Shown: one piece after another, positions 5,446 through 18,000 of the stretch
Numbering within the stretch: position 1 is the first letter of the stretch
How the letters are laid out: each line of letters opens with the position of its first letter
Source: a virus
Taxonomy: Duplodnaviria; Heunggongvirae; Uroviricota; Caudoviricetes
Reading direction: 5' to 3' (one strand)
IMG/VR virus record: IMGVR_UViG_2875713109_000005
DNA length: 40,475 bases
Notes under the pieces: generated by a model
The model's database searches: none
The model's input: only the letters and a program-made list of their open reading frames with translations
Told to the model about the DNA's origin: nothing
Program-made: the position numbers and the translations under genes

Positions 5446-5742
5446 AAAATCGTGTTGAGGCCAACGCCCATAATGCGGGCAGTTACCCGGCATCCAACGC
5501 CATTCATGGCCATATCAATGATTTTCTGGTGCGTACCGGGTTGAGAAGCGGTGTAAGTGAACTGCAGTTGCCATGTTTTACGGCAGTGAGAGCAGAGATA
5601 GCGCTGATGTCCGGCGGTGCTTTTGCCGTTACGCACCACCCCGTCAGTAGCTGAACAGGAGGGACAGCTGATAGAAACAGAAGCCACTGGAGCACCTCAA
5701 AAACACCATCATACACTAAATCAGTAAGTTGGCAGCATCACC
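5446..5742 (-). mobile_element. insA: IS1 left-end fragment (IRL plus insA)
   Basis: The reverse complement of 5700-5742 is GGTGATGCTGCCAACTTACTGATTTAGTGTATGATGGTGTTT, the IS1 IRL. The InsA frame [43 protein letters not shown]... runs into the IS903 fragment at 5445. Confidence 0.85.
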
Positions 5743-5943
5743 GATCCCTTCATTTAGTGACTGCCCCTGGGTTTTTCATGCTCTCCTGCGTCCTAGAGAA
5801 CTTGCCAATAACCTACATTATTTTTGCTTTGCCATTACCAATCGTCCTGAACAAGTTCATTTTAAAGCCAAAGCGCTGCCCAACTTTTATCCTCAATACC
5901 ACATCGTCAGCATGAAATAACCTAATCCCTGTGTTGGGATCTT

Positions 5944-6010
5944 ATAATCGCTAATGATAATTATTTACATTTTATAGCTTCTGCTATAAAACATAGTAGT
6001 TGCTATGTTT
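5944..6010 (+). promoter_or_regulatory. sit promoter region with a Fur-box-like site and two MntR-like palindromes
   Basis: ATAATCGCTAATGATAATTATTTAC (5944-5968) resembles the Fur consensus GATAATGATAATCATTATC. TTTTATAGC-TTCT-GCTATAAAA (5970-5991) and AAACATAG-TAGTTG-CTATGTTT (5989-6010) are palindromes of MntR-box type. Confidence 0.6.
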
Positions 6011-6042
6011 ATTCTAATTTTGCTCACTATAGGTACTAAATC

Positions 6043-6957
6043 ATGCTCTCAATAAAAAAAGTAACCATGCTCTTGGGGTGCCTAGTCCTCACCTGCTCGA
6101 TAGCATTTCAGGCGAGTGCAGCTGAAAAATTCAAGGTCATTACAACTTTTACCATCATCGCAGATATGGCCAAAAACGTGGCTGGAGATGCTGCAGAAGT
6201 CTCATCCATAACCAAGCCTGGTGCAGAAATTCATGAGTATCAGCCTACCCCTGGCGATATTAAACGTGCGCAGGGGGCACAACTGATTCTCGCCAATGGT
6301 ATGAATCTGGAATTGTGGTTCCAACGCTTTTACCAGCATCTCAATGGGGTTCCAGAAGTAATTGTCTCTTCGGGTGTGACGCCAGTAGGGATCACCGAAG
6401 GGCCCTATGAGGGCAAACCTAACCCCCATGCCTGGATGTCGCCAGATAATGCTCTGATTTACGTCGATAATATTCGTGATGCGTTTATAAAATACGATCC
6501 GGCAAATGCACAAACCTACCAACGTAATGCCGATACTTATAAAGCCAAGATTACCCAAACCCTTGCCCCCCTGCGTAAGCAGATTGCGGAACTCCCTGAG
6601 AATCAGCGATGGATGGTCACCAGTGAAGGGGCTTTTTCTTATCTCGCACGCGATTTGGGGCTAAAAGAGCTTTATCTGTGGCCGATTAATGCCGATCAAC
6701 AAGGAACACCGCAGCAGGTACGTAAGGTTGTTGATATAGTTAAGAAAAATCATATCCCGGCAGTCTTTAGCGAGAGTACGATTTCCGATAAACCAGCGCG
6801 TCAGGTTGCGCGTGAAACCGGCGCGCACTACGGTGGTGTGCTCTATGTCGATTCCCTGAGCACAGAAAACGGCCCGGTACCTACGTATATCGACCTTCTG
6901 AAGGTTACTACCAGTACGCTGGTACAGGGAATTAAAGCCGGAAAAAGGGAGAAATAA
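6043..6957 (+). CDS. sitA: periplasmic Mn2+/Fe2+-binding protein of the Sit ABC transporter
   Basis: 304 aa with a signal peptide ([17 protein letters not shown]) and a cluster-9 (ZnuA/PsaA-like) SBP. It is first in a 4-gene operon whose start and stop codons overlap. Confidence 0.9.
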
Positions 6958-7784
6958 TGATGCAATCTGCAGGCATTGTCGTTAATGATGTTACTGTCAC
7001 CTGGCGTAACGGGCACACAGCACTGCGCGATGCATCCTTCACAGTACCAGGCGGATCTATTGCCGCTCTGGTTGGGGTAAACGGTTCCGGAAAATCGACG
7101 TTGTTTAAAGCGATTATGGGATTTGTGCGTCTGACCAGCGGGAAGATATCTGTTCTGGGTATTCCCACACGACAGGCGCTACAGAAAAACCTGGTTGCCT
7201 ACGTCCCTCAGTCAGAAGAGGTTGACTGGTCATTTCCTGTACTGGTGGAAGATGTGGTGATGATGGGCCGCTATGGGCATATGGGTATGTTGCGTATCGC
7301 CAAAAAGAGGGATCGTCAGATTGTCACCGATGCGCTGGAACGTGTCGATATGGTGGATTTTCGCCATCGACAAATCGGCGAGCTTTCCGGTGGACAAAAG
7401 AAACGCGTCTTTCTGGCGAGAGCGATTGCACAGCAGGGTGATGTGATCCTGCTGGATGAACCTTTTACCGGCGTTGATGTGAAAACCGAAGCGAAAATCA
7501 TCAGCCTGTTGAGGGAGTTACGCGCGGAAGGCAAAACGATGCTTGTCTCAACGCACAATCTCGGATCCGTCACGACATTTTGCGATTATACGGTCATGGT
7601 CAAAGGCACCGTCCTGGCAAGCGGGCCGACAGACACCACTTTTACAGCCGAGAACCTGGAGCTGGCTTTTAGCGGCGTACTGCGCCATGTCACACTTAAC
7701 GGCTCGGAAGAAAGCATTATTACTGACGATGAACGCCCTTTTGTGGCACATCGACCGTCAGCGGTGCAGAGGGAAGAAAGATGA
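6957..7784 (+). CDS. sitB: Sit ABC transporter ATPase
   Basis: Walker [10 protein letters not shown], signature LSGGQKKR and Walker B VILLDEP. It overlaps sitA through TAATG. Confidence 0.92.
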
Positions 7785-8638
7785 ACGCGCTACTGGAACC
7801 CTTCAGCTATGAATATATGCTCAATGCGATGTGGGTCTCGGCGATGGTCGGCGGTCTCTGCGCTTTCCTGTCATGCTATCTGATGCTAAAAGGCTGGTCG
7901 CTGATTGGCGATGCGCTGTCGCACTCTATTGTCCCGGGTGTTGCGGGGGCATATATGCTGGGGCTTCCGTTTTCTCTGGGAGCCTTCTTTTCCGGCGGAC
8001 TGGCAGCGGGCAGCATGCTGTTTCTTAACCAACTCACTCGCTTAAAAGAAGATGCCATCATCGGCCTGATCTTCTCGTCCTTTTTTGGCCTGGGGCTGTT
8101 TATGGTGTCATTGAACCCGACATCCGTGAACATTCAGACCATCGTCCTGGGCAATATTCTGGCAATCGATCCGGCGGATATCCTGCAACTCACTATCATT
8201 GGCATTCTCTCGATCATCGTGCTTTTTTTCAAATGGAAAGATCTTATGGTGACCTTTTTCGACGAGAATCACGCCCGTGCTATTGGATTGCATCCGGGCA
8301 GATTAAAAATCCTCTTCTTCACCCTGCTGTCGGTTTCGACCGTTGCGGCGCTGCAAACGGTTGGTGCCTTTCTGGTGATCTGTCTGGTGGTGACTCCCGG
8401 TGCAACAGCATGGTTGTTAACCGATCGTTTTCCCCGCCTGCTCATGATTGCTGTAACTATTGGCAGTGTGACCAGTTTCCTCGGCGCGTGGGTCAGTTAC
8501 TTTCTGGACGGCGCGACAGGTGGAATCATCGTGGTGGCGCAGACACTGCTGTTTCTTTTAGCATTTGTCTTTGCGCCCACCCATGGGCTTTTGGCAAATC
8601 GTCGGCGTGCGCATAAAGCGCTGGAGGATCGCTCATGA
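7781..8638 (+). CDS. sitC: Sit ABC transporter permease
   Basis: 285-aa multi-pass membrane protein of the ABC-3 family. It overlaps sitB through ATGA. Confidence 0.9.
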
Positions 8639-9492
8639 TGGCATTATTACTGGAGCCACTGCAGTTCACCTTTATGAGTCACGCACTGCTGATTTCACTG
8701 GTAGTTTCCATACCCTGTGCGCTGCTGTCGGTCTTTCTGGTCCTGAAAAGTTGGGCACTGATGGGTGACGCGATGAGTCATGCGGTTTTTCCTGGCATCG
8801 TGCTTGCCTGGATTCTGGGGTTACCTCTGGCTACAGGGGCATTCGTCGCCGGAGTATTCTGTGCGGTGGCGACGGGATACCTGAAAGACAACAGCCGAAT
8901 CAAGCAAGATACAGTGATGGGGATTGTTTTTTCTGGCATGTTTGCCGCAGGTCTGATCTTGTATATTGCAGTCAAACCAGACGTACATCTTGATCATATT
9001 CTTTTCGGCGACATGCTCGGGATAACCATCGGCGATATAATCCAGACGGTGATTATTGCCGGACTGGTTACACTTGTTATTAGCGTAAAATGGCGGGATT
9101 TTTTGCTGTTCAGCTTTGATTATCAACAGGCGCAGGCAAGCGGTTTGCATACGAGATGGCTGCATTATGGGCTGCTGTGCATGGTCTCCCTGACCATTGT
9201 GGCGACGCTGAAAGCGGTAGGTATCATTCTCTCTATTTCTCTTCTCATTGCGCCTGGTGCCATTGCGGTACTCCTGACACAACGCTTTCATATTGCGCTC
9301 CTGCTGGCGACTGGCATATCGATATTGGTCTCAATGACTGGTGTCTGGCTGTCCTTTTTTATCGACAGCACGCCAGCTCCGACAATTGTTGTCTTATTCG
9401 CGGTCATGTTCATCATGACGTTTACCGTTACCAGCATCAACGCACGCACAAAGGAAAATGCCGAACCACGGGATTTGTTATCATCCGATTAG
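8635..9492 (+). CDS. sitD: Sit ABC transporter permease
   Basis: 285-aa paralog of SitC. It overlaps sitC through ATGA. Confidence 0.9.
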   Translation: MMALLLEPLQFTFMSHALLISLVVSIPCALLSVFLVLKSWALMGDAMSHAVFPGIVLAWILGLPLATGAFVAGVFCAVATGYLKDNSRIKQDTVMGIVFSGMFAAGLILYIAVKPDVHLDHILFGDMLGITIGDIIQTVIIAGLVTLVISVKWRDFLLFSFDYQQAQASGLHTRWLHYGLLCMVSLTIVATLKAVGIILSISLLIAPGAIAVLLTQRFHIALLLATGISILVSMTGVWLSFFIDSTPAPTIVVLFAVMFIMTFTVTSINARTKENAEPRDLLSSD

Positions 9493-9961
9493 CAGAACAC
9501 TCGGCCAGCAACATCCGCTTATTGGCGATGCGCTTGAACGAATAATGCACAGACTTATGATTCTGATAAGTTTTGTTGCCAGAGAGTTGCTGCGGACTGG
9601 ATAGCAAGTAATGTCGATTCTCAGGGGTAGCAAACAGCGCAGTAAAATGAGGGAAGTAGTGGCAAAACATAGAGAAAATTGGGGGGCGAGGGCCAGTGAT
9701 GTAAAAAACCACGCTAAGAGTTTAATTAATTGTTTGTATTGAAGTTTAATGATCTTAACTCACCCTTAAGAATATCTTCCGGTAACGAAGACGTATAATG
9801 CCCCAGCATATTTATATGGCTATGTATCAGCAGCGATAATCTTGCCGGATGCTACTCCTCAGGAGTTTCTCCCGATTTGCGAAGATGTGACAACGCCTCC
9901 TGCATGTAAAGTGTGTTTCACAGCACAACCGCATTGGTCACCAGCCCCAGAGCACCTAGTT

Positions 9962-10112
9962 GATCTTCCTGCCCTTAACGGTAGCTGAAGATGACTGGGC
10001 TGGATGGAAAATCCTGCATGGTGCATTGGGAGAGCAGATAGAATTGGTTGGCGACGATCTGTTTGTGACCAACGTAAAGTATATTCAGCGCGGCATTGAC
10101 GAAAACCTTGCA
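9962..10112 (+). pseudogene. enolase-like gene fragment
   Basis: The translation ...[43 protein letters not shown] resembles the conserved enolase segment (..DW..W......[16 protein letters not shown]...). There is no start codon, and upstream and downstream homology are lost. Confidence 0.45.
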
Positions 10113-10348
10113 ATCCTTTGTGTATCATTAAAATCTTTGTAGTAATCAGATTCCTTTCCATAACTGTCTTCAAGTAACTTTTTTGCTCTTGCAATCCAGT
10201 TATTACCTTTAGCCGAATCAATATATTCCTGGCTTCTGTGACTAAATGCACTTGTTCCCATATATTTTGTCGACATGACAGAATTGTACTCTTGTTCAAG
10301 CACTTCAAATCTTTCAGCTAAGGCCTTCTTCGTCATAGCGCAATCCAA
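10085..10348 (-). CDS. hypothetical protein, probably 3'-truncated
   Basis: 87-aa ORF ([20 protein letters not shown]...). Its last ~9 codons read through the enolase-like fragment, suggesting its native C-terminus is lost. I recognise no family. Confidence 0.35.
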
Positions 10349-10505
10349 ATTATATGCTAATAATACCTGTGAATTTTAATATTCTACCATATCTGGCTTT
10401 CTTCCGTTCACATTGGACATTCAGGTAATTTCGTCCAGTTCTGCTGGCTGTGCTGGAGCTAGCCTGGTATAATTTAACCAGCCATTTCAACAGCGGTGGT
10501 GTCTT

Positions 10506-10700
10506 ATGAACGTCAAGAACATGTTTTACGGTGCCATTCTGGTAAGTGCTGTATGGGCGGTTATTTTGCTCTCATGGTTTGAATCCAGCCTTACCTTAAG
10601 CGATTACCTCAGGTACGAATCGGTAATCCTGATCCCATGCCTGCTGTGGGTTGCTGTTTATGGGTTAGGTAAACGTTACCTCCAAAGAACATCAAACTAG
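10506..10700 (+). CDS. small two-TM membrane protein, unknown function
   Basis: 64 aa with two hydrophobic helices (FYGAILVSAVWAVILLSWF and VILIPCLLWVAVYGL). A GC-rich hairpin follows at 10737-10761. Confidence 0.4.
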   Translation: MNVKNMFYGAILVSAVWAVILLSWFESSLTLSDYLRYESVILIPCLLWVAVYGLGKRYLQRTSN

Positions 10701-10775
10701 CCGCGCCAGCGACTTTTTTTACACCTTCGTTTAATTCCCTGGCTCACCTGGACAGCCAGGGAATTCTGCCCAGCG

Positions 10776-11255
10776 CTACTGGCTTGCTGTGCCAAACTTT
10801 CCGTTGCAGATTTCCTCATTCACAATGGCCTGAAACATGGAAACAGAATTTCTAGCCTTATCCCTCAGTGCATTAATGAGTTCTGTGTCGTGTATTTTGT
10901 TGTAGAAAATGAAAGTAGAAACATCAAACTGGAGTTTAAATGCTGCTTTCCTTATGGCTAAACCTGACGTGATCGTTATCTCATTATGTATGCGAAGATA
11001 GGCAAGATAATCATCGTTATTTGCTTCACACTGCTCATATAAATATTTTTGCATGAGAGATTGAGACAAGGCCAGAAATTCCACATATCGTTTGGTTTTT
11101 ATTTCTTTATCTTTTAATCCCTGTACTGCCGCTTCTTTTTTTAATTCGTGCTTTTGTGTTAGCTTAAGAGTCAGCCACCCCCCTAAAATAGTCAGCAACG
11201 ACCCCAAACCTATTTTTACGGCATTATCAGCCACATCCACCCACTCAGTCGCCAT
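10776..11255 (-). CDS. N-terminally membrane-anchored helical protein, unknown function
   Basis: 159 aa with one TM segment (IGLGSLLTILGGWLTL) followed by a predicted helical soluble domain. AT-rich. Confidence 0.5.
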   Translation of the reverse strand: MATEWVDVADNAVKIGLGSLLTILGGWLTLKLTQKHELKKEAAVQGLKDKEIKTKRYVEFLALSQSLMQKYLYEQCEANNDDYLAYLRIHNEITITSGLAIRKAAFKLQFDVSTFIFYNKIHDTELINALRDKARNSVSMFQAIVNEEICNGKFGTASQ

Positions 11256-11372
11256 CTGTTACTCGTTCTTCCTGTGATGATCATGGTTGCCAGTATAATT
11301 CCAGCACAGACTGGACGTACAGCATTTTCTGTCCAGTAGACAGACTGTTACACTCAGGATAGGATAGCTTCT

Positions 11373-11822
11373 ATGGTTAAATTTCCAGGTGAAGTTATGA
11401 GTTCGTCCGCTGCTGTAACCGTTATAACTGGTGTTCTTGTTTTTGTTGGTGGTCAGCTCATTGTAAAGAGCGCGATTGAACCTTATATAGAATTCAAGAA
11501 ACAATTGGGAAAAATATCAAATCTGCTATTAGCTAACCAAGCTAAATTAGCTAATCCTTGTGCTGTTGAAATGTCTGAGATCATCCATGAGTTGAAAGAT
11601 GCCGCAGCTCAGTTAATGTCGAAGCATTCAGCTTTGCCTTTCTATATCAAAAAATTCCATATCGGATTCCGCTTTGTTCCATCAACGCCTGAAATTATTA
11701 GTTCGGCGCAAAAATTGAATTTGATAGCATCAATACATGAAGGTAAAAGCAAGGAAAGTACATATGAGCACATAGCCGAGATTGGACGTATGCTCAAAAT
11801 CCCAACCACCTATTCTCTTTAA
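11373..11822 (+). CDS. N-terminally membrane-anchored helical protein, unknown function
   Basis: The likelier start is ATG 11397, preceded by AGGTGA. It has one TM segment (AAVTVITGVLVFVGGQLIV) followed by a helical domain, and is divergent from 10776-11255. A terminator-like hairpin plus T5 follows at ~11880-11905. Confidence 0.5.
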   Translation: MVKFPGEVMSSSAAVTVITGVLVFVGGQLIVKSAIEPYIEFKKQLGKISNLLLANQAKLANPCAVEMSEIIHELKDAAAQLMSKHSALPFYIKKFHIGFRFVPSTPEIISSAQKLNLIASIHEGKSKESTYEHIAEIGRMLKIPTTYSL

Positions 11823-11994
11823 TCTTCACGCCGATCAGATTACATAATCCACGCGCCACCTGGACATTCAGGTAAAAAAGTCCAACTGGTGAGGTTGGGC
11901 TTTTTGGCTTTCCGGTTCTGTTGGTGGCTATGACCGGAGAAAATTGCTCTACACCTAACGCTTACATTTTATTTACAGCGTTTGATATCTTCCT

Positions 11995-12039
11995 CGCCTT
12001 TAACGCCTTTAACGCCTTTAACGCCTTTAACGCCTTTAA
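11995..12039. repeat. 9-bp tandem repeat CGCCTTTAA x5
   Basis: Five perfect head-to-tail copies, followed by a G6 run. Confidence 0.95.
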
Positions 12040-12110
12040 GGGGGGAAGATAGAGCAACTCACCGATGATGAATAAAGTGGACGAAGAGACGATAACTACA
12101 CTCCCATCCA

Positions 12111-12127
12111 GGGGGGGGGCTTTTTTT
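12111..12127. repeat. homopolymer pair G9-C-T7
   Basis: GGGGGGGGGCTTTTTTT, ~320 bp upstream of the 12449 gene. Confidence 0.9.
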
Positions 12128-12448
12128 GTGGTACTGTAGTGTGGGAGTAAGTTCGGGTCTCATATTGAATGAGGCGATTGCGAGCTGCCTTTCATCGAAA
12201 ACTAATGTCCATTGTCATTGTATTGTCTGACTCTATCTCGTAACAAGTCTTTGACACAAAGTTTTATATTTTTATCAAAGTGGACATGAGGGGAATTAAA
12301 TTTGTGATCTTTTTCAAATAATGTGTTCTTGATAGTAGATTCTGGTTAGTGATATCTATTAACAATATATTAAATTTCTTTTGTATTATCGCTGATAAAA
12401 CTACTGTATTGGTATACTATATATTATTGAGTAACAGGAGATATCACT

Positions 12449-13951
12449 ATGAAGAAATTTTATCAATTTAGGGATGAACAGCGAAAGGAGCTTGAACAAC
12501 ATGATTTTTATAGTTTGATTTCTTCAGATTGTATAGCGTTGAAAGACAAACTATTATTTGCTCCTGTTATGGCTCATTTCATAATGAACTTCAGAGACAT
12601 GAATAAATGGGTTATCAGGTTTGATAACAATGATAATGAATATAAATCTGTTATAAACGGTGGAACAATCGAGGATGAAACACATTCAAGATTGTTTCTG
12701 GAAGACTGGAGGAAACTATATATAGATGACAAACTTAACTGGAAAGCAAGTGATGTTATATACTGGTTGTTTATTAGTCGAGAAATGGAGTGTTTCCGAA
12801 AATTTGGTATTGATTTTATGAGACTTTGTGTAGATGATGGAGGAGACCCAATACTTCGATATTCTCACTCCGAGTCAGGAGAAACTTGCGGTAATATATT
12901 CTTTTCAAGAATTAGTCCTATTGCTGATCAAGTTGCCAATCATTTGGGAATATCACTCCGTTATTTTGGAACATTTCACCTTAATCTTGAAAATGGACAT
13001 GTATGGAAGTCAGAAGGTGTTTTTGAAAATATAGAGTTGTCACCAGATTCTTATAAGAAAATGGCTACTCTATCAAAGAGAATGTTTGATATATTTGAAG
13101 GAATTCATGACTCTTTTTATAATTACCTGTCCAGTTATGTTCTTAATGGAAGTCATCCGTCATTTTTTGAATCATTACCTGTAGGGAAAAATGTTGCACC
13201 TATATACCCTGAATTTGTGATAGAAAACAAAAGCCATAACGATGGTAGACATATTGAACATATAAACAATTACCTGGAAAAAATATCGAGTCATGAGTTC
13301 TTTAAATGGCTGATTAACACCTCAATAGACCCTCAATTGAAATTGAAAAGTTTCATACCTCTTTGGATTGTTGATATTATGGGGTATAGAGATATTAATA
13401 AATATGTTTTTACATATGAACAGCCTGAATCAGAAAGTGAAAAGATTATAAATGATTATGCATTACACTTGTCAGAGCATAGCCGTTTATTTTATCATGA
13501 CTGGAAGTCACTTCAACTTGATGATATGTTACGTTGGAGTGCCAGTGATACTCTTGAGTTTATTTTTCTTAATTCAGATATGGATATGCATAGAGAAAAT
13601 ATAGTTAAGTTTTCTTTGTTCGGATTAAAACACAGAGATCCTGTTATCAGGTTCTGGTTTATGATGATACTGGAGTTAAGTGGAAAAGAATTTTTCTCTC
13701 ATGTTGGAGATATAGCTTTACAGGTGGAAAGTAAATATAATATTTATCTCCCATATTTATGTGGACGCCATGCAACAGAAAATGAGCATGAAGCATATAA
13801 TAATATGTATGAGCATTTTATGGTAAAGGAACTTAGCCCTGAACAAAGTGATCTAATAATACAAATTACAGACATGGTTATGCGGTCATTATTGAATAAT
13901 TTGGATATCTCATATCGATATGTAGTAAATAATTTATTGGCAGCTCGTTAG
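12449..13951 (+). CDS. 500-aa protein made of two tandem heme-oxygenase-like (putative diiron, PF14518-like) domains; function unknown
   Basis: AGGAG lies 8 nt upstream of the ATG. The gene is very AT-rich. There is an internal duplication: HDFYSLIS...FAPVMAHFIMNFRDMNKWV...ETHSRLFLEDWRKLYIDDKLNWKASDVIYWLF in the N half matches HEFFKWLIN...FIPLWIVDIMGYRDINKYV...SEHSRLFYHDWKSLQLDDMLRWSASDTLEFIF in the C half. The E..H..LF..(D)W..L motif is reminiscent of iron-containing redox enzyme / HO-like folds. Confidence 0.7.
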   Translation: MKKFYQFRDEQRKELEQHDFYSLISSDCIALKDKLLFAPVMAHFIMNFRDMNKWVIRFDNNDNEYKSVINGGTIEDETHSRLFLEDWRKLYIDDKLNWKASDVIYWLFISREMECFRKFGIDFMRLCVDDGGDPILRYSHSESGETCGNIFFSRISPIADQVANHLGISLRYFGTFHLNLENGHVWKSEGVFENIELSPDSYKKMATLSKRMFDIFEGIHDSFYNYLSSYVLNGSHPSFFESLPVGKNVAPIYPEFVIENKSHNDGRHIEHINNYLEKISSHEFFKWLINTSIDPQLKLKSFIPLWIVDIMGYRDINKYVFTYEQPESESEKIINDYALHLSEHSRLFYHDWKSLQLDDMLRWSASDTLEFIFLNSDMDMHRENIVKFSLFGLKHRDPVIRFWFMMILELSGKEFFSHVGDIALQVESKYNIYLPYLCGRHATENEHEAYNNMYEHFMVKELSPEQSDLIIQITDMVMRSLLNNLDISYRYVVNNLLAAR

Positions 13952-14051
13952 AAGAACAGCATTGGTATGACTCTGATGCTCCTTAAAATCCCACTTTTCA
14001 GAGTGGGATTTGTTTAATGCCCAGAACAGGGGGAATTTCCATTCATGCCCA

Positions 14052-14348
14052 GGTGATGCTGCCAACTTACTGATTTAGTGTATGATGGTGTTTTTGAGGT
14101 GCTCCAGTGGCTTCTGTTTCTATCAGCTGTCCCTCCTGTTCAGCTACTGACGGAGTGGTGCGTAACGGCAAAAGCACCGCCGGACATCAGCGCTATCTCT
14201 AATTGAGCGGCATAACCTGAATCTGAGGCAGCACCTGGCACGGCTGGGACGGAAGTCGCTGTCGTTCTCAAAATCGGTGGAGCTGCATGACAAAGTCATC
14301 GGGCATTATCTGAACATAAAACACTATCAATAAGTTGGAGTCATTACC
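14052..14348 (+). mobile_element. internally deleted IS1 (both ends retained, ~297 bp)
   Basis: IRL GGTGATGCTGCCAACTTACTG... runs from 14052 through the first ~149 nt (insA 5'). The sequence then jumps at ~14201 to the last ~148 nt of IS1 (...AATTGAGCGGCATAACCTGAATCTGAGG...AAGTTGGAGTCATTACC, ending at 14348). Confidence 0.85.
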
Positions 14349-15068: not shown

Positions 15069-18000
15069 TTAAGCAACGTTTTCTGCCTCTGACGCCTCTT
15101 TTAATGGTCTCAGATGTCCTTTGGTCACCAGTTCTGCCAGCGTGAAGGAATAATGGCCGAGCATATTGATATGTCCGTGGCAAAGCGGGGAGAGGCGTGC
15201 GATATCTTCATCATTCAGTGTTTCACCCTGCGCCCGGAGATGATCCAGGGCTGCCTGCATATAAATAGTGTTCCATAACACGACGGCGTTAGTGACCAGC
15301 CCCAGTGTGCCCAGTTGATCTTCCTGACCGTCGGTATATCGTTTTCTTATCTCACCTTTTTGACCGTGACAGATGGCTCTGGCAACGGCATGGCGACTTT
15401 CTCCCCGATTAAGCTGGGTCAGAATGCGCCGGCGGTAATCTTCATCATCAATATAATTAAGCAGATACAGCGTTTTGTTGATGCGCCCCACTTCAATGAT
15501 TGCCTGAGTCAGTCCGGAAGGACGTTCACTTTTCAGCAATGAACGGACCAGCACTGAAACCTGTACTTTGCCCAGCTTCAGGGAGCCAGCGGTCCGGATC
15601 ATTTCGTCCCACTGAAGGACTATTTTTCGGGGATCTGATTGCCCTCTGGCAATATCATTCAGCACGCCATAGTCGGCATCATGGTCCATTCGCCAGAAAA
15701 CCGAAGCACCGGCATCAGCCAGGCGTGGAGAAAACTGGTATCCCAGCAGCCAGAAAAGGCCAAAGACAAGTTCGCTGGCACCTGCTGTATCGGTCATAAT
15801 TTCGGTTGGATTCAGCCCGGTCTCCTGTTCCAGAAGACCTTCCAGCACAAAGATAGAGTCCCTCAGCGTCCCCGGTATAACGATGCCATGAAAGCCGGAA
15901 TACTGATCGGACACAAAGTTGTACCAGGTGATCCCTCTGTTATTACCAAAGTATTTGCGGTTCGGTCCGGCATTGATTGTTCTGACTGGCGTAACAAAGC
16001 GCATTCCATCTGCAGATGCCACTTCTCCTCCACCCCATATCTGTGCCAGTGGCAGCGTTGCCTGAAAATCAACCAGTCTGGCATTAGCGCTGGTGATAGT
16101 TTCAGCCCGCAGATAGTTCGCTTTTGTCCAGTTCAGCCGGTGTCGGGTCAGTGCAGGAACATTTGATCTGATCAGTGGTTCCAGACCGATATTGCAGGCT
16201 TCAGCCATCAGCACGGCGCTGATGCTGACGGGCAGATCATCAACTCTGGCACTGGCTTCACTAGCATGGAAAAACTCATCAGCAAATCCGGTATGGGCGT
16301 TAATTTCGAGCAGCAACTCCGTTAAATCCACCGGAGGGAGTAGATCACTGATCATTTTGCTCAGTCGTTTCAGACTGTCCGGCTCATCAAGACTGGCGAG
16401 GGGAGAAATTGTCAACCGGGGCTTCGGGCCAGAAACATCGAGTTCGACAGCCTCATTTTCGCAAAGACGTGCAGCAACCTGTCTGTAACGACTATCAAGC
16501 TGATGACCCAGAGATTTTATTGCTTCCTGCGGGTCTGTCGGGTGCCCCAAAGAACGATAAACCTTAATCCGGTTTGCCTGCCAGTCAGCACCCTGTAGTA
16601 ATCTTGCACGAGGATCTCCCCACCGGTTACTGCCGGTAACGTAGACATCCCTCCGCCTCAGACTATCCTGCAGTTTACTGAGAAAGCAGAGCGTGTATCC
16701 CCTGCGGGTGATATGTTTTTCCTTGTTAATCACCAGCCGTTTCCATGACCGACTGATAATTTCCGTTGGTGCGTCGTCAAAAAACTGCCGCCGTGAGCTG
16801 AACTCCCGGCTGAGGTAGTCACAGGCATTCAGAGTGGTAACCCCGGCAGGTGCGGATGAAAATTTAACGGTATTCAGCAGATGGGGCAGGAAACGACGAA
16901 CGCGCCCGTACTGCTCCACCATTTCTTCATGAAAATTATCGTCTGAGGGCCGGGCAATTTCACGGACAAGCGTGATGATTTCAGCCAGCTTTTGCCTTGG
17001 GATGTAGCTGAACACCTCAGCACGAATCGATTCGTCCGGTGTTTCTTCTTTCAGCAGGTACGAACATGCGCTGGCGAGCGCCAATGCAGATTTATCCAGA
17101 TCCTTCAGCGAGCGGAGCCGTTTTTTCTGCCCAATCTTTCTGGCGTCACGGATGATAACGGCCAGCATGGCGTCCAGAACGTCCAATGCATCATCCAGCG
17201 CCAGCGTTTCCCATGCAAGGACAAAGGCAACCAGAACCGCCATCCTTTTCTGCGGTGACATCCTGGCAATATTGAACACCGAAGTCATACCAGCATAACG
17301 TGCGAGATTTTTCAGGCGCACAGCCGGGAGTGTACTCAGGTTTTCAGCATGCAGGCCAAAATCGTTCAGAGTTTTCCAGCGTTCAATTGCTTCATTAAAC
17401 GCCGGACCACTGATGGTCACAGGGCCCTTTTTCAGTGATTCCAGTAAAGACAGGCGGCTGCAATCAGTTGGCCCCAGCAGCATCTCCAGCTGTGAACGCT
17501 GTTCGGCTGACGGTATCAGTGCCAGTTTGTTCCACAGGCGCAACGTCGCCTTTTCCCTTACCTCTGAAATCAACCGGGTCAGCGTAGTGGCTCCGGGGAG
17601 AATAATACGATGTTGCATAAGCCACCCTGTCGCCAGATCGAAAAGCAGGCCAGGACGTTCGTTGCTTATCCAGCTCCGGGTATATAAAAGACGGGTAAGG
17701 CGAAATGTCCAGGGCCAGGCAAATTCACGATACTGATAGTGCTGACGTATCAGCGCTGCATGCTCACGGCGGGTATTTTCCCTCTGACCGTATTCTGCAA
17801 GAACGGTGATATCACGAATCCCGAGCTGTCTGGCGGTAAAATGCCGGACGCCGGAAGGAATATGATTCATATCGGTGAGGAAGGTGCCCAGAAAACGGAC
17901 ACATCCAATTTGCAGGGCAATGCCCAGACGGTTGTGATCACCTCTGCTTTTTCCGATAAATTCCTTGTCTGCTTCATCAAGGTGAAAATATCGTGCCAGC

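Follow-up and report, generated by a model that had tools for sequence, protein, structure and literature searches.

The stretch of DNA analyzed here is the viral record IMGVR_UViG_2875713109_000005 (40,475 nucleotides, referred to in its full length as the window). Between positions 10110 and 14051 it carries a block of genes separated by copies of a 24-bp site, and these sites with the genes between them are the subject of this analysis. The source of the window is an E. coli IncF plasmid of the sit type (sitABCD). Four open reading frames (ORFs), named A, B, C, and D, are parted by four sites with one ORF per interval. An earlier note on this DNA had correctly placed two of them at 10776-11255 on the minus strand (C, 159 aa) and at 11373 or 11397 to 11822 on the plus strand (D, 149 or 141 aa), and the other two are also in place at 10506-10700 on the plus strand (B, 64 aa with two hydrophobic segments) and at 10085-10348 on the minus strand (A, 87 aa). 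The note had further described a motif that brackets the cluster; this bracketing is real and repeated above chance, with four copies in fact, two of which had been missed. Judged from its relatives, 10110-14051 retains four sites of a truncated modular array of gene cassettes as carried by Enterobacterales plasmids.

In the window, TGGACATTCAGGTAA occurs exactly twice, at 10414 and 11861 (0.12 copies expected), and CACCTGGACA also twice, at 10745 and 11857 (0.04 expected). The looser pattern TGGAC-N14-GTCCA has three copies, all in this region (10414, 11312, and 11861), over an expectation of 0.10, and none of 100 shuffles reached three. A fourth, degenerate copy at 10749-10772, which the earlier note had listed as a related CACCTGGACA, was found with a position-weight matrix (PWM) built from related copies. 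The consensus reading of all four (10414, 10749, 11312, and 11861) lies on the minus strand. Core site 4 (10414-10437; minus strand TGGACGAAATTACCTGAATGTCCA) has a PWM score of 32.4, and a core identical to it sits between the B and f22 cassettes of the IncX4 plasmid L159. The degenerate core site 3 (10749-10772; minus strand TGGGCAGAATTCCCTGGCTGTCCA; PWM score 28.9) begins 3 nt past the stop codon of C, and a canonical core occupies the homologous position in a Klebsiella plasmid. Core site 2 (11312-11335; minus strand TGGACAGAAAATGCTGTACGTCCA) belongs to a "TGCTGT" subtype and lies in the divergent intergenic region of C and D; homology to five other C-bearing loci ends at 11335-11337, that is, at this core. 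In core site 1 (11861-11884; minus strand TGGACTTTTTTACCTGAATGTCCA; PWM score 25.3) the left arm is replaced, as core positions 6-11 are taken by a T-run that is part of an AgrB-like terminator. Next to D in L127, L161, and L155, the homologous core has the canonical form TGGACAGAATTACCTGAATGTCCA.

Further loci were collected by scanning metagenome contigs for the pattern and then applying the PWM, with at least two sites counted as an array, and a consensus was drawn from 124 non-redundant aligned instances. It reads TGGACAGAAT-n-ACCTGAAyGTCCA, giving TGGACAGAATnACCTGAAyGTCCA for the whole core. At 1.4-1.8 bits per position the left arm hardly varies; conservation is moderate in the centre, and the final five bases are again conserved. 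We infer a 9-6-9 layout with TGGACAGAA as the left arm, TnACCT in the centre, and GAAyGTCCA as the right arm. In some copies, such as TGGACAGAATTACGGTTCTGTCCA and TGGACAGAA-TTACGG-TTCTGTCCA, two 9-bp arms form a perfect inverted repeat about a 6-bp spacer. A subtype with the centre AATGCTGTAy lies ahead of C and of the HEPN-like gene f12. The scan yielded 58 loci with at least two sites, and the orientation within arrays was uniform with the sole exception of one inverted pair in L051. Site orientation is independent of gene strand.

The arrays are carried by IncX1, IncX4, IncF, and IncFII(K) plasmids and by one Erwinia chromosome. Beside homologues of C, the 24-mer was found on the Erwinia chromosome, on Klebsiella, Enterobacter, and Citrobacter plasmids, and on E. 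coli IncFII plasmids. The Klebsiella, Enterobacter, and Citrobacter plasmids hold six to seven copies of the same orientation in 5 kb around C and around SduA-like nuclease, FRG, and AbiD genes on either strand. When a consensus of about 100 bp was compared with complete E. coli genomes, 1111 places were found in 691 of 5426 genomes (median of one per genome). A check of the motif across genomes had been proposed earlier, with a ubiquitous REP-type repeat as the outcome that would speak against it; the motif proved not to be one, with 1097 of the 1111 copies on plasmids, and a chromosomal repeat of the REP, BIME, or ERIC type is ruled out by this restriction. On the complete 86-kb plasmid NZ_CP041930, all seven sites fall in one 5-kb block between a resolvase gene and parA, and related backbones without the block have zero sites.

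Between the convergent genes B and C, a perfect 12-bp inverted repeat (AATTCCCTGGCT / AGCCAGGGAATT; 10733-10765, assigned to neither strand) overlaps core 3. Its folding energy of -19.7 kcal/mol (z -3.2) makes it the only strong hairpin of the region, and it is probably a bidirectional terminator for the two genes. This hairpin contains the copy at 10749-10772, the copy at 11861 overlaps the terminator of the AgrB-like RNA, and TGGAC...GTCCA is able to pair, all of which would fit a common RNA hairpin or intrinsic terminator as proposed in the earlier note, or else a chance or REP-like repeat. This reading is nonetheless largely refuted. The 24-mer taken as a hairpin is weak, with only -4.1 kcal/mol (z about -1.4) and no T-run, and the 24-mers as RNA range from -4.1 to -4.5 kcal/mol (z about -1.4 to -1.6). 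Only 3 of the 102 half-site pairs that deviate from the consensus are compensated, the orientation ignores gene strand, and the unpaired TGGACAGAA/ACCTG positions are the most conserved ones. Chance or a REP-like origin is opposed by a repetition far above expectation and by the restriction to plasmids. Because compensatory changes are lacking, the fold is weak, and orientation is independent of gene strand, the 24-bp element is read as a duplex protein-binding site and neither as a hairpin nor as a terminator.

Between unrelated plasmids, homology begins and ends at the sites. When the window was compared with a Klebsiella plasmid by blastn, only 10749-11337 aligned, which is site to site around C, and the B cassettes of IncX4 and IncF plasmids are homologous exactly from core to core. 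In a census of 535 alignments, each spanning one complete inter-site unit in another locus, 186 of 305 left breaks fell at -2..0 of the left site, while 104 of 315 right breaks fell at -2..+1 of the right site and 56 more at +17; these counts are of non-independent events, their concentration being sharp nonetheless. In IncX4 plasmids, a slot that stretches from a conserved 218-aa gene to a Ter and a ResD-like tyrosine recombinase gene was found both empty and occupied. The empty slot (L158) has the single site TGGACAGAATCACCTGTATGTCTA, and the occupied slot (L156) has TGGACAGAATCACCTGTATGTCCA, then B as the sole cassette, then CGGACAAAATGACCTGTATGTCTA. The site of the empty slot is a hybrid of the left part of site 1 and the right end of site 2 of L156. 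Other cassette sets in the same slot are C-B-f22 (L159), dqlB-C-x-f22 (L160), and D-f12-f48 (L161), and the C-B-f22 block of L159 carries the same three cores as the window. The B example places the crossover at core positions 11-23 and the example in which C lies next to Ter places it before position 10, so that a single fixed position is not derivable. The two junctions would agree only if a 6-bp overlap can derive from either parent. Of the options offered by the earlier note, a recombination scar comes nearest: the recombination part is borne out by homology breaks at the sites, but a scar does not suit a site that is conserved across genera and is hence a functional element.

The 9-6-9 layout and the polarity, together with homology that runs from site to site and the hybrid site of the empty slot, lead to the reading of the 24-bp sites as recombination boundaries of mobile cassettes, with a logic like that of integrons or pdif modules, to which we give a probability of about one in two. 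The exchange at the sites would be enzyme-catalyzed and site-specific. A cassette is one gene or one toxin-antitoxin pair, mostly with its own promoter, bounded by polar 24-bp sites. A recombinase would bind the site as a duplex, and through exchange at or near the left arm and the centre, plasmids would gain, lose, and swap cassettes among each other. Junctions formed in this way would take the left arm from the left partner, the right arm from the right partner, and the 6-bp centre from either. The arrays would then be shuffled sets of defence-like, addiction, and small membrane-protein genes beside the resolution or partition locus of a plasmid.

Several points weigh against recombination at the sites. 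No recombinase is consistently linked to them, the neighbours being tyrosine recombinases (ResD-type, IncX4-type as at 6869-7693 in L156, or RepFIB Int) or serine resolvases (IncX1 and IncFII(K)). There is no recombinase gene within the window, and NZ_CP041930 has an array and zero annotated tyrosine recombinases. No core occurs in F at 35-62 kb or in R64 at 28-54 kb, both of which contain resD and the region to which rfsF maps. The centres vary among the sites of one array, which classical tyrosine recombination tolerates poorly, and one clear exchange of C against f12 after D falls 17 bp outside the site, at GGAATTAT. The breaks counted in the census are not independent, and homologous or microhomology recombination at conserved repeats would yield similar break patterns. 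Conserved -10-like elements lie at fixed spacing in the flanks and suggest a regulatory role. In the searchable literature no description of the 24-bp site or of the arrays was found, the search being limited and a prior description possible, and a full-text search with the motif sequence returned only unrelated primers and miRNAs. Variable regions of IncX4 plasmids have been described (PMC5428312), and no repeated site was found there in the literature searched.

A candidate for the enzyme, the serine resolvase beside the Klebsiella array, was not retained, as the duplicated 75-bp segment that flanks the array contains a different palindrome and array-free backbones are without the core. This backbone segment of about 75 bp, with the palindrome CTGTTCAGAAGCAAGTTCTGAACAG, is single in array-free plasmids and otherwise duplicated on both array sides. 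It was located at 15405-15489 and 20978-21052 in L023, at 9713-9798 and 11527-11588 in L026, and at 9740-9814 in L027. The segment probably serves the neighbouring serine resolvase as its res site, and because it is duplicated around arrays, movement of whole arrays by res x res recombination is suggested as well.

The flanking elements bear on a second explanation, in which the site is a shared operator in a conserved promoter module. One plasmid or host regulator would bind the TGGACA/TGTCCA half-sites and co-regulate cassettes for defence and addiction that are potentially toxic, and modular exchange would be a by-product of homologous recombination between conserved modules of about 80 bp. 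In the window, TATACT at 11292-11297 on the minus strand lies 14 nt downstream of core 2 and is, from an anchored alignment of 11 loci, probably the -10 element of C. The same layout of core, 14 nt, and -10 is found ahead of C and of f12 in other loci, and "TGCTGT"-type cores stand exactly 14 nt upstream of a -10-like hexamer (TATACT/TATGAT) in many loci. Ahead of B, the extended -10 element TGGTATAAT (10465-10473, plus strand), as read from the sequence, lies 27 nt from core 4 and is likely the promoter of B; a matching arrangement (TGGTATTAT) precedes B in the IncX4 plasmid L156. A simple promoter scan of the window did not have TGGTATAAT among its listed elements. Many copies have conserved flanks, with GCGCGGGGAATTA on the right and a TATAAT-type element about 30 nt to the left, of which TGGTATAAT is one. 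The exchange point between C and f12 lies in the -10 region and outside the core, the lack of covariation suits a duplex protein-binding site, and the IncN CUP repeats, of which those of R46 were observed here, are a precedent for repeated promoter or operator modules.

A second conserved element, TGGACAyTTTTTCCGATArTGC...TGTCCA (TGGACA-N21-TGTCCA), occurs upstream of the first core at array heads (L023 15536-15568; L026 9845; L155 13941; L158 1380; L156 6736). In IncX4 a gap of 29 nt separates it from the start codon at which the tyrosine recombinase gene begins, which suggests autoregulation and speaks for an operator. A LexA box in the TGCTGT-type copies was rejected, as the window copy ends in CTG and not in CAG.

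Other observations do not suit an operator. Some sites lie where two genes converge and a promoter has no use, namely 3 nt past the stop codon of C and by the terminator of B. Orientation within arrays is uniform on any gene strand, which an operator does not require, and the right-flank consensus is retained even ahead of a terminator rather than a promoter. The polymorphism of empty and occupied IncX4 slots, with its hybrid site, resembles exchange from site to site, and the ORF clusters of 65 loci contain no candidate regulator that co-occurs with the arrays. A shared operator is the main rival reading and is rated as less probable than a recombination site. The recombination-site and operator readings can both hold and are not mutually exclusive.

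The strict polarity within arrays would also be expected of a cis-element for replication, segregation, or DNA-end protection, such as a fork barrier, a site of loading, or one related to partition, repeated near the Ter/par/res region, between the copies of which cassettes would accumulate. In IncX1, IncX4, IncF, and IncFII(K) plasmids the arrays have partition genes and resolvases as neighbours, and a canonical Tus-type Ter (ATGTTGTAACTAA) often adjoins the first site. Such a role is very improbable, since related backbones with the same par and res genes have zero sites, the number of sites follows the number of cassettes, the Erwinia chromosomal array has no par genes within about 5 kb, and the sequence is unlike Ter or sopC. 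The Ter itself (ATGTTGTAACTAA; GAATGTTGTAACTAATGA) was observed beside the first core in many arrays of IncX4 and other plasmids, at 6605-6630 in L156 and in the left flank in L034, L127, L038, L044, and L121.

Going beyond recombination at the sites as such, it is tentatively proposed that Enterobacterales plasmids (IncX1, IncX4, IncF, and IncFII(K)) possess an integron-like system. A recombinase acting on the 24-bp site would capture and shuffle self-expressed single-gene cassettes, among which genes for abortive infection, nucleases, HEPN proteins, toxin-antitoxin pairs, and small membrane proteins are enriched, the arrays would form a mobile combinatorial store of defence and addiction functions by the plasmid's resolution or partition locus, and C, D, and B would be new membrane-anchored effectors; the proposal as a whole is possible, and we hold it less firmly than the recombination-site reading. 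If the 24-bp sites do serve recombination, the clinically important plasmids of E. coli, Klebsiella, and Salmonella would possess a second system for cassette capture that does not depend on integrons, and this would explain whole-gene differences among the variable regions of IncX4 and IncF plasmids. It would also provide a simple sequence rule that delimits accessory cassettes, and with it a route to new genes of defence or addiction, such as B, C, D, E, f12, and f13, and it would point to the recombinase or regulator. Even if the sites were operators, a widespread plasmid regulon of toxic accessory genes would be revealed.

Gene B (10506..10700, plus strand) is a conserved single-gene cassette that recurs in 7 loci, and with its likely extended -10 element and its probable terminator it has both signals of its own. 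Gene C (WP_000190053; 10776..11255, minus strand) encodes an N-terminal hydrophobic helix followed by a predicted four-helix bundle, and the same architecture is predicted for gene D (WP_012300440; 11397..11822, plus strand, alternative start 11373). Homology between C and D was rejected, as hhalign gave a probability of 0.4%. Neither is an orphan gene as had been supposed. C has 65 homologues with identities down to 43%, all in Enterobacterales, and their N-terminus MATEWVDVADNAVKIGLG is almost invariant; D matches phrog_7512 over its full length (E 3.8e-60, residues 9-148 on profile positions 1-140 of 141). This match for D was the sole one in scans of A to E against Pfam, NCBIfam, PADLOC, and PHROGs.

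Both genes also have relatives in phages. A homologue of C (about 62% identity, 186 aa) lies in Enterobacter P2-like prophages (L020-L022, 4001-4561) between the tail-completion (gpS-like) and baseplate-spike (gpV-like) genes. It is on the strand opposite to its neighbours and has no 24-bp core nearby, and by its context it occupies the place of an inserted accessory (moron) gene. A search of genome contigs with the C profile returned 6 loci, mostly misbinned. The public name of the C family, "peptidase M14", is a misannotation, as no domain match supports it. The homologue of D in the P1-like phage D6 is found between humD and phd/doc.

A role of C and D in exclusion or abortive infection had been suggested earlier from their architecture, and the company they keep in the arrays favours it only circumstantially; B, too, may have a part in phage exclusion. 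C and D share arrays with AbiD, HEPN-like, FRG/PDC-S15, restriction-endonuclease (REase), and toxin-antitoxin cassettes, and relatives of C and D are found in the P2-like prophages and in phage D6. Against PADLOC, B, C, and D had no match better than E 0.02, and it was the neighbouring cassettes in other arrays alone that matched.

ORFs were clustered from 65 array-bearing loci for a census of cassettes, in which C recurred in 18 loci, relE/phd in 13, D in 12, B in 7, f12 in 7, f13 in 6, and E in 6. The HEPN-like f12 has an Rx4H motif (RHVLVH) and a weak match to a DRT-associated HEPN model (E 4e-5). Genes of the Klebsiella arrays match AbiD (E 3e-59), PDC-S15/FRG (E 2e-36), and SduA-like (E 4e-19) or PDC-M68A (E 1e-22) models, while f46 is a RelB antitoxin fusion and the Erwinia neighbour of C contains RNAVTH. 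With dqlB/agrB cassettes as regular members, the arrays are, by these family matches, rich in defence-like and addiction genes. In the metagenome contig L127, a microcin J25 cluster (mcjA-D; 5466-9897) directly adjoins an array with D, f12, and C. Some inter-core units are short and "empty" (106-340 bp), as at 4585-4945 in L003, 12737-12866 in L127, and 465-686 and 2384-2606 in L030. They have the common sequence ...TTTGCCAGCAGTTCTGCGACCGC...GGTGGCGATGAATTGCTGGCGC and no convincing ORF, and might represent a small RNA, a peptide, or an accessory sequence of the site.

Of the remaining features of the window, ORF A (10109..10348 on the minus strand, within the called ORF 10085-10348 of 87 aa) is the N-terminal remnant, about 78-87 aa long, of the 263-aa cassette gene f22. 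The assignment to the 5' end of f22 follows from the C-B-f22 block of L159, which shares the three cores of the window, and the full-length relatives (cluster f22) align with ORF A from residue 1. The C-terminus of f22 carries a REase_DpnII-MboI domain (PF18742, a PD-(D/E)XK nuclease; residues 118-262, E 2e-50), and f22 also matches the PADLOC model Aga_Helical-REase (E 2e-28). ORF A lacks the nuclease domain, as the window copy ends at about residue 78 with the truncation at 10110. "Malate dehydrogenase", the name given by PGAP to the pseudogene of ORF A and carried by the f22 family in public databases, is a misannotation with no domain support.

The truncation of the 87-aa ORF had escaped the earlier note, and so had a gene for a small RNA of the AgrB family at 11872..11958 on the minus strand (Rfam RF02891; 46.0 bits where the gathering score is 40, over positions 1-84 of the 84 in the model). 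This RNA is unannotated in the RefSeq copies of the plasmid and stands, with "peptidase M14" and "malate dehydrogenase", among the annotations corrected here. A tblastn search found no DqlB/DinQ toxin ORF in the window, and dqlB is present downstream of gene E in the uninterrupted relatives L034 and L089. From this comparison the AgrB-like RNA of the window is an orphan antitoxin whose dqlB partner was lost to the insertion sequence IS1. It might still neutralise DqlB from co-resident plasmids.

Gene E (WP_000715078; 12449..13951, plus strand) encodes 500 aa at a GC content of 0.28-0.34, recurs in 6 loci, and had zero family matches in Pfam, NCBIfam, PADLOC, and PHROGs. In L034 and L089, E forms one inter-core unit with agrB-like and dqlB genes, and the next core lies beyond dqlB; agrB-like copies flank E in the uninterrupted relatives. 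Between the AgrB-like RNA and E, five tandem copies of the 9-bp unit CCTTTAACG were observed at 11993-12037 and a G9 homopolymer followed by a T-run at 12110-12118. The copy number of CCTTTAACG seems variable among relatives, as blastn alignment lengths differ, and both tracts may be prone to slippage.

More than 100 complete E. coli plasmids match positions 9500-12500 at 100% identity, and plasmids account for 1452 of the 1471 matching places. The order in an identical plasmid (PGAP annotation) is sitD, a Tn3-transposase fragment, an enolase fragment, the "malate dehydrogenase" pseudogene, three hypotheticals, IS1, and sopAB. From about 10100 the block is AT-rich, with a GC content of 0.28-0.45, and of 0.35-0.45 around the four ORFs, compared to about 0.5 in sitD. 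The array fragment (10110..14051, without a strand) is truncated on both sides, and blastn against the uninterrupted metagenome relatives L034/L089 covers exactly this range. On the left, the junction at 10109/10110 is a fusion to a fragment of the enolase gene, and on the right, the IS1 inverted repeat GGTGATGCTGCC starts at 14052, at the end of the fragment. In L034/L089 the array goes on past gene E with agrB-like RNA, dqlB, and more cores. At position 10110, where the window has the enolase fragment, IS1 abuts in the relative L089. Because IS1 lies at 14052 and abuts 10110 in L089, IS1-mediated deletion or rearrangement is implied as the process that shaped both ends (10109/10110 and 14052).

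Compared with known systems, the array would function like integron cassettes, pdif modules, and the IncN CUP repeats, yet it fails defining features of each. The plasmid systems rfsF/ResD and rfsF/RsdB resemble it in that their tyrosine recombinases lie by maintenance genes, and several arrays adjoin ResD-type genes. In IncI1 and IncR plasmids, switches of gene sets and insertions have been noted in published comparisons to fall exactly at rfsF (PMC8004404, PMC9412624). There is one rfsF per plasmid, in contrast to an array here, and F shows only a half-match, TGGACAGAACAACCT, between resD and repE. This half-match (L157, about 12980-13030) agrees with the left arm and centre of the core, with TCTGTCC 30 nt further on, and it could be a remnant of the site or distantly akin to it. 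The identity of the core with the rfsF/ResD site was rejected from the lack of a core in the regions of F and R64 given above, a comparison by map position. The P2 Ogr-type TGT-N12-ACA, the MlrA pattern TGTACA-N12-TGTACA, and the Xer, Ter, and sopC sites do not match the core either.

The DinQ/AgrB and DqlB/agrB toxin-antitoxin systems of type I are represented in the window by the full-length AgrB-family RNA at 11872-11958 (minus strand). As a plasmid addiction module, DqlB/agrB has been validated by experiment, and it is frequent on IncX plasmids (PMC12365149). It explains one cassette alone and neither the 24-bp site nor B, C, and D.

The CUP repeats of the IncN plasmids pKM101 and R46, which are under the control of ArdK/ArdR, are likewise conserved intergenic modules repeated in direct orientation, with promoter elements inside, in front of accessory genes. 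They precede accessory genes of the maintenance or leading region, among them ardA, ardB, and ccg genes, and may favour modular rearrangement. In R46 the repeats have a length of 240-650 bp, CUP genes serve anti-restriction whereas those here are of the defence and toxin-antitoxin kinds, and the cores described here are also found at the 3' ends of genes. R46 is without the 24-bp core (no PWM hit of at least 10), by which identity with the CUP repeats is ruled out.

Acinetobacter pdif modules share with the arrays discrete modules that include toxin-antitoxin pairs, sites of the form arm-spacer-arm, a presence on different backbones, and homology that ends at the sites. All sites here are direct (58 loci with one exception) in contrast to the inversely oriented pdif sites, the hosts here are Enterobacterales, and the core, unrelated in sequence to dif and cer with their 28-bp XerC-spacer-XerD sites, has a consensus without an XerD arm of the TTATGTTAAAT type; nothing points to Xer.

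Integrons differ in the site itself, which has 24 bp here compared to 57-141 bp for attC, and no GTTRRRY/RYYYAAC boxes occur in the 124 aligned instances. While attC acts as a folded single strand, the site here shows no covariation and a weak fold. An adjacent IntI-type integrase is missing, the neighbours being recombinases of the ResD-like or IncX4 type, serine resolvases, or none, and the cassettes here have their own promoters and lie on either strand. Integron cassettes with phage-defence genes have been reported. Like integrons, the loci described here are arrays of mostly single-gene cassettes with imperfect-palindrome sites in the same orientation, their content is shuffled between replicons, and the "empty" platform consists of one site.

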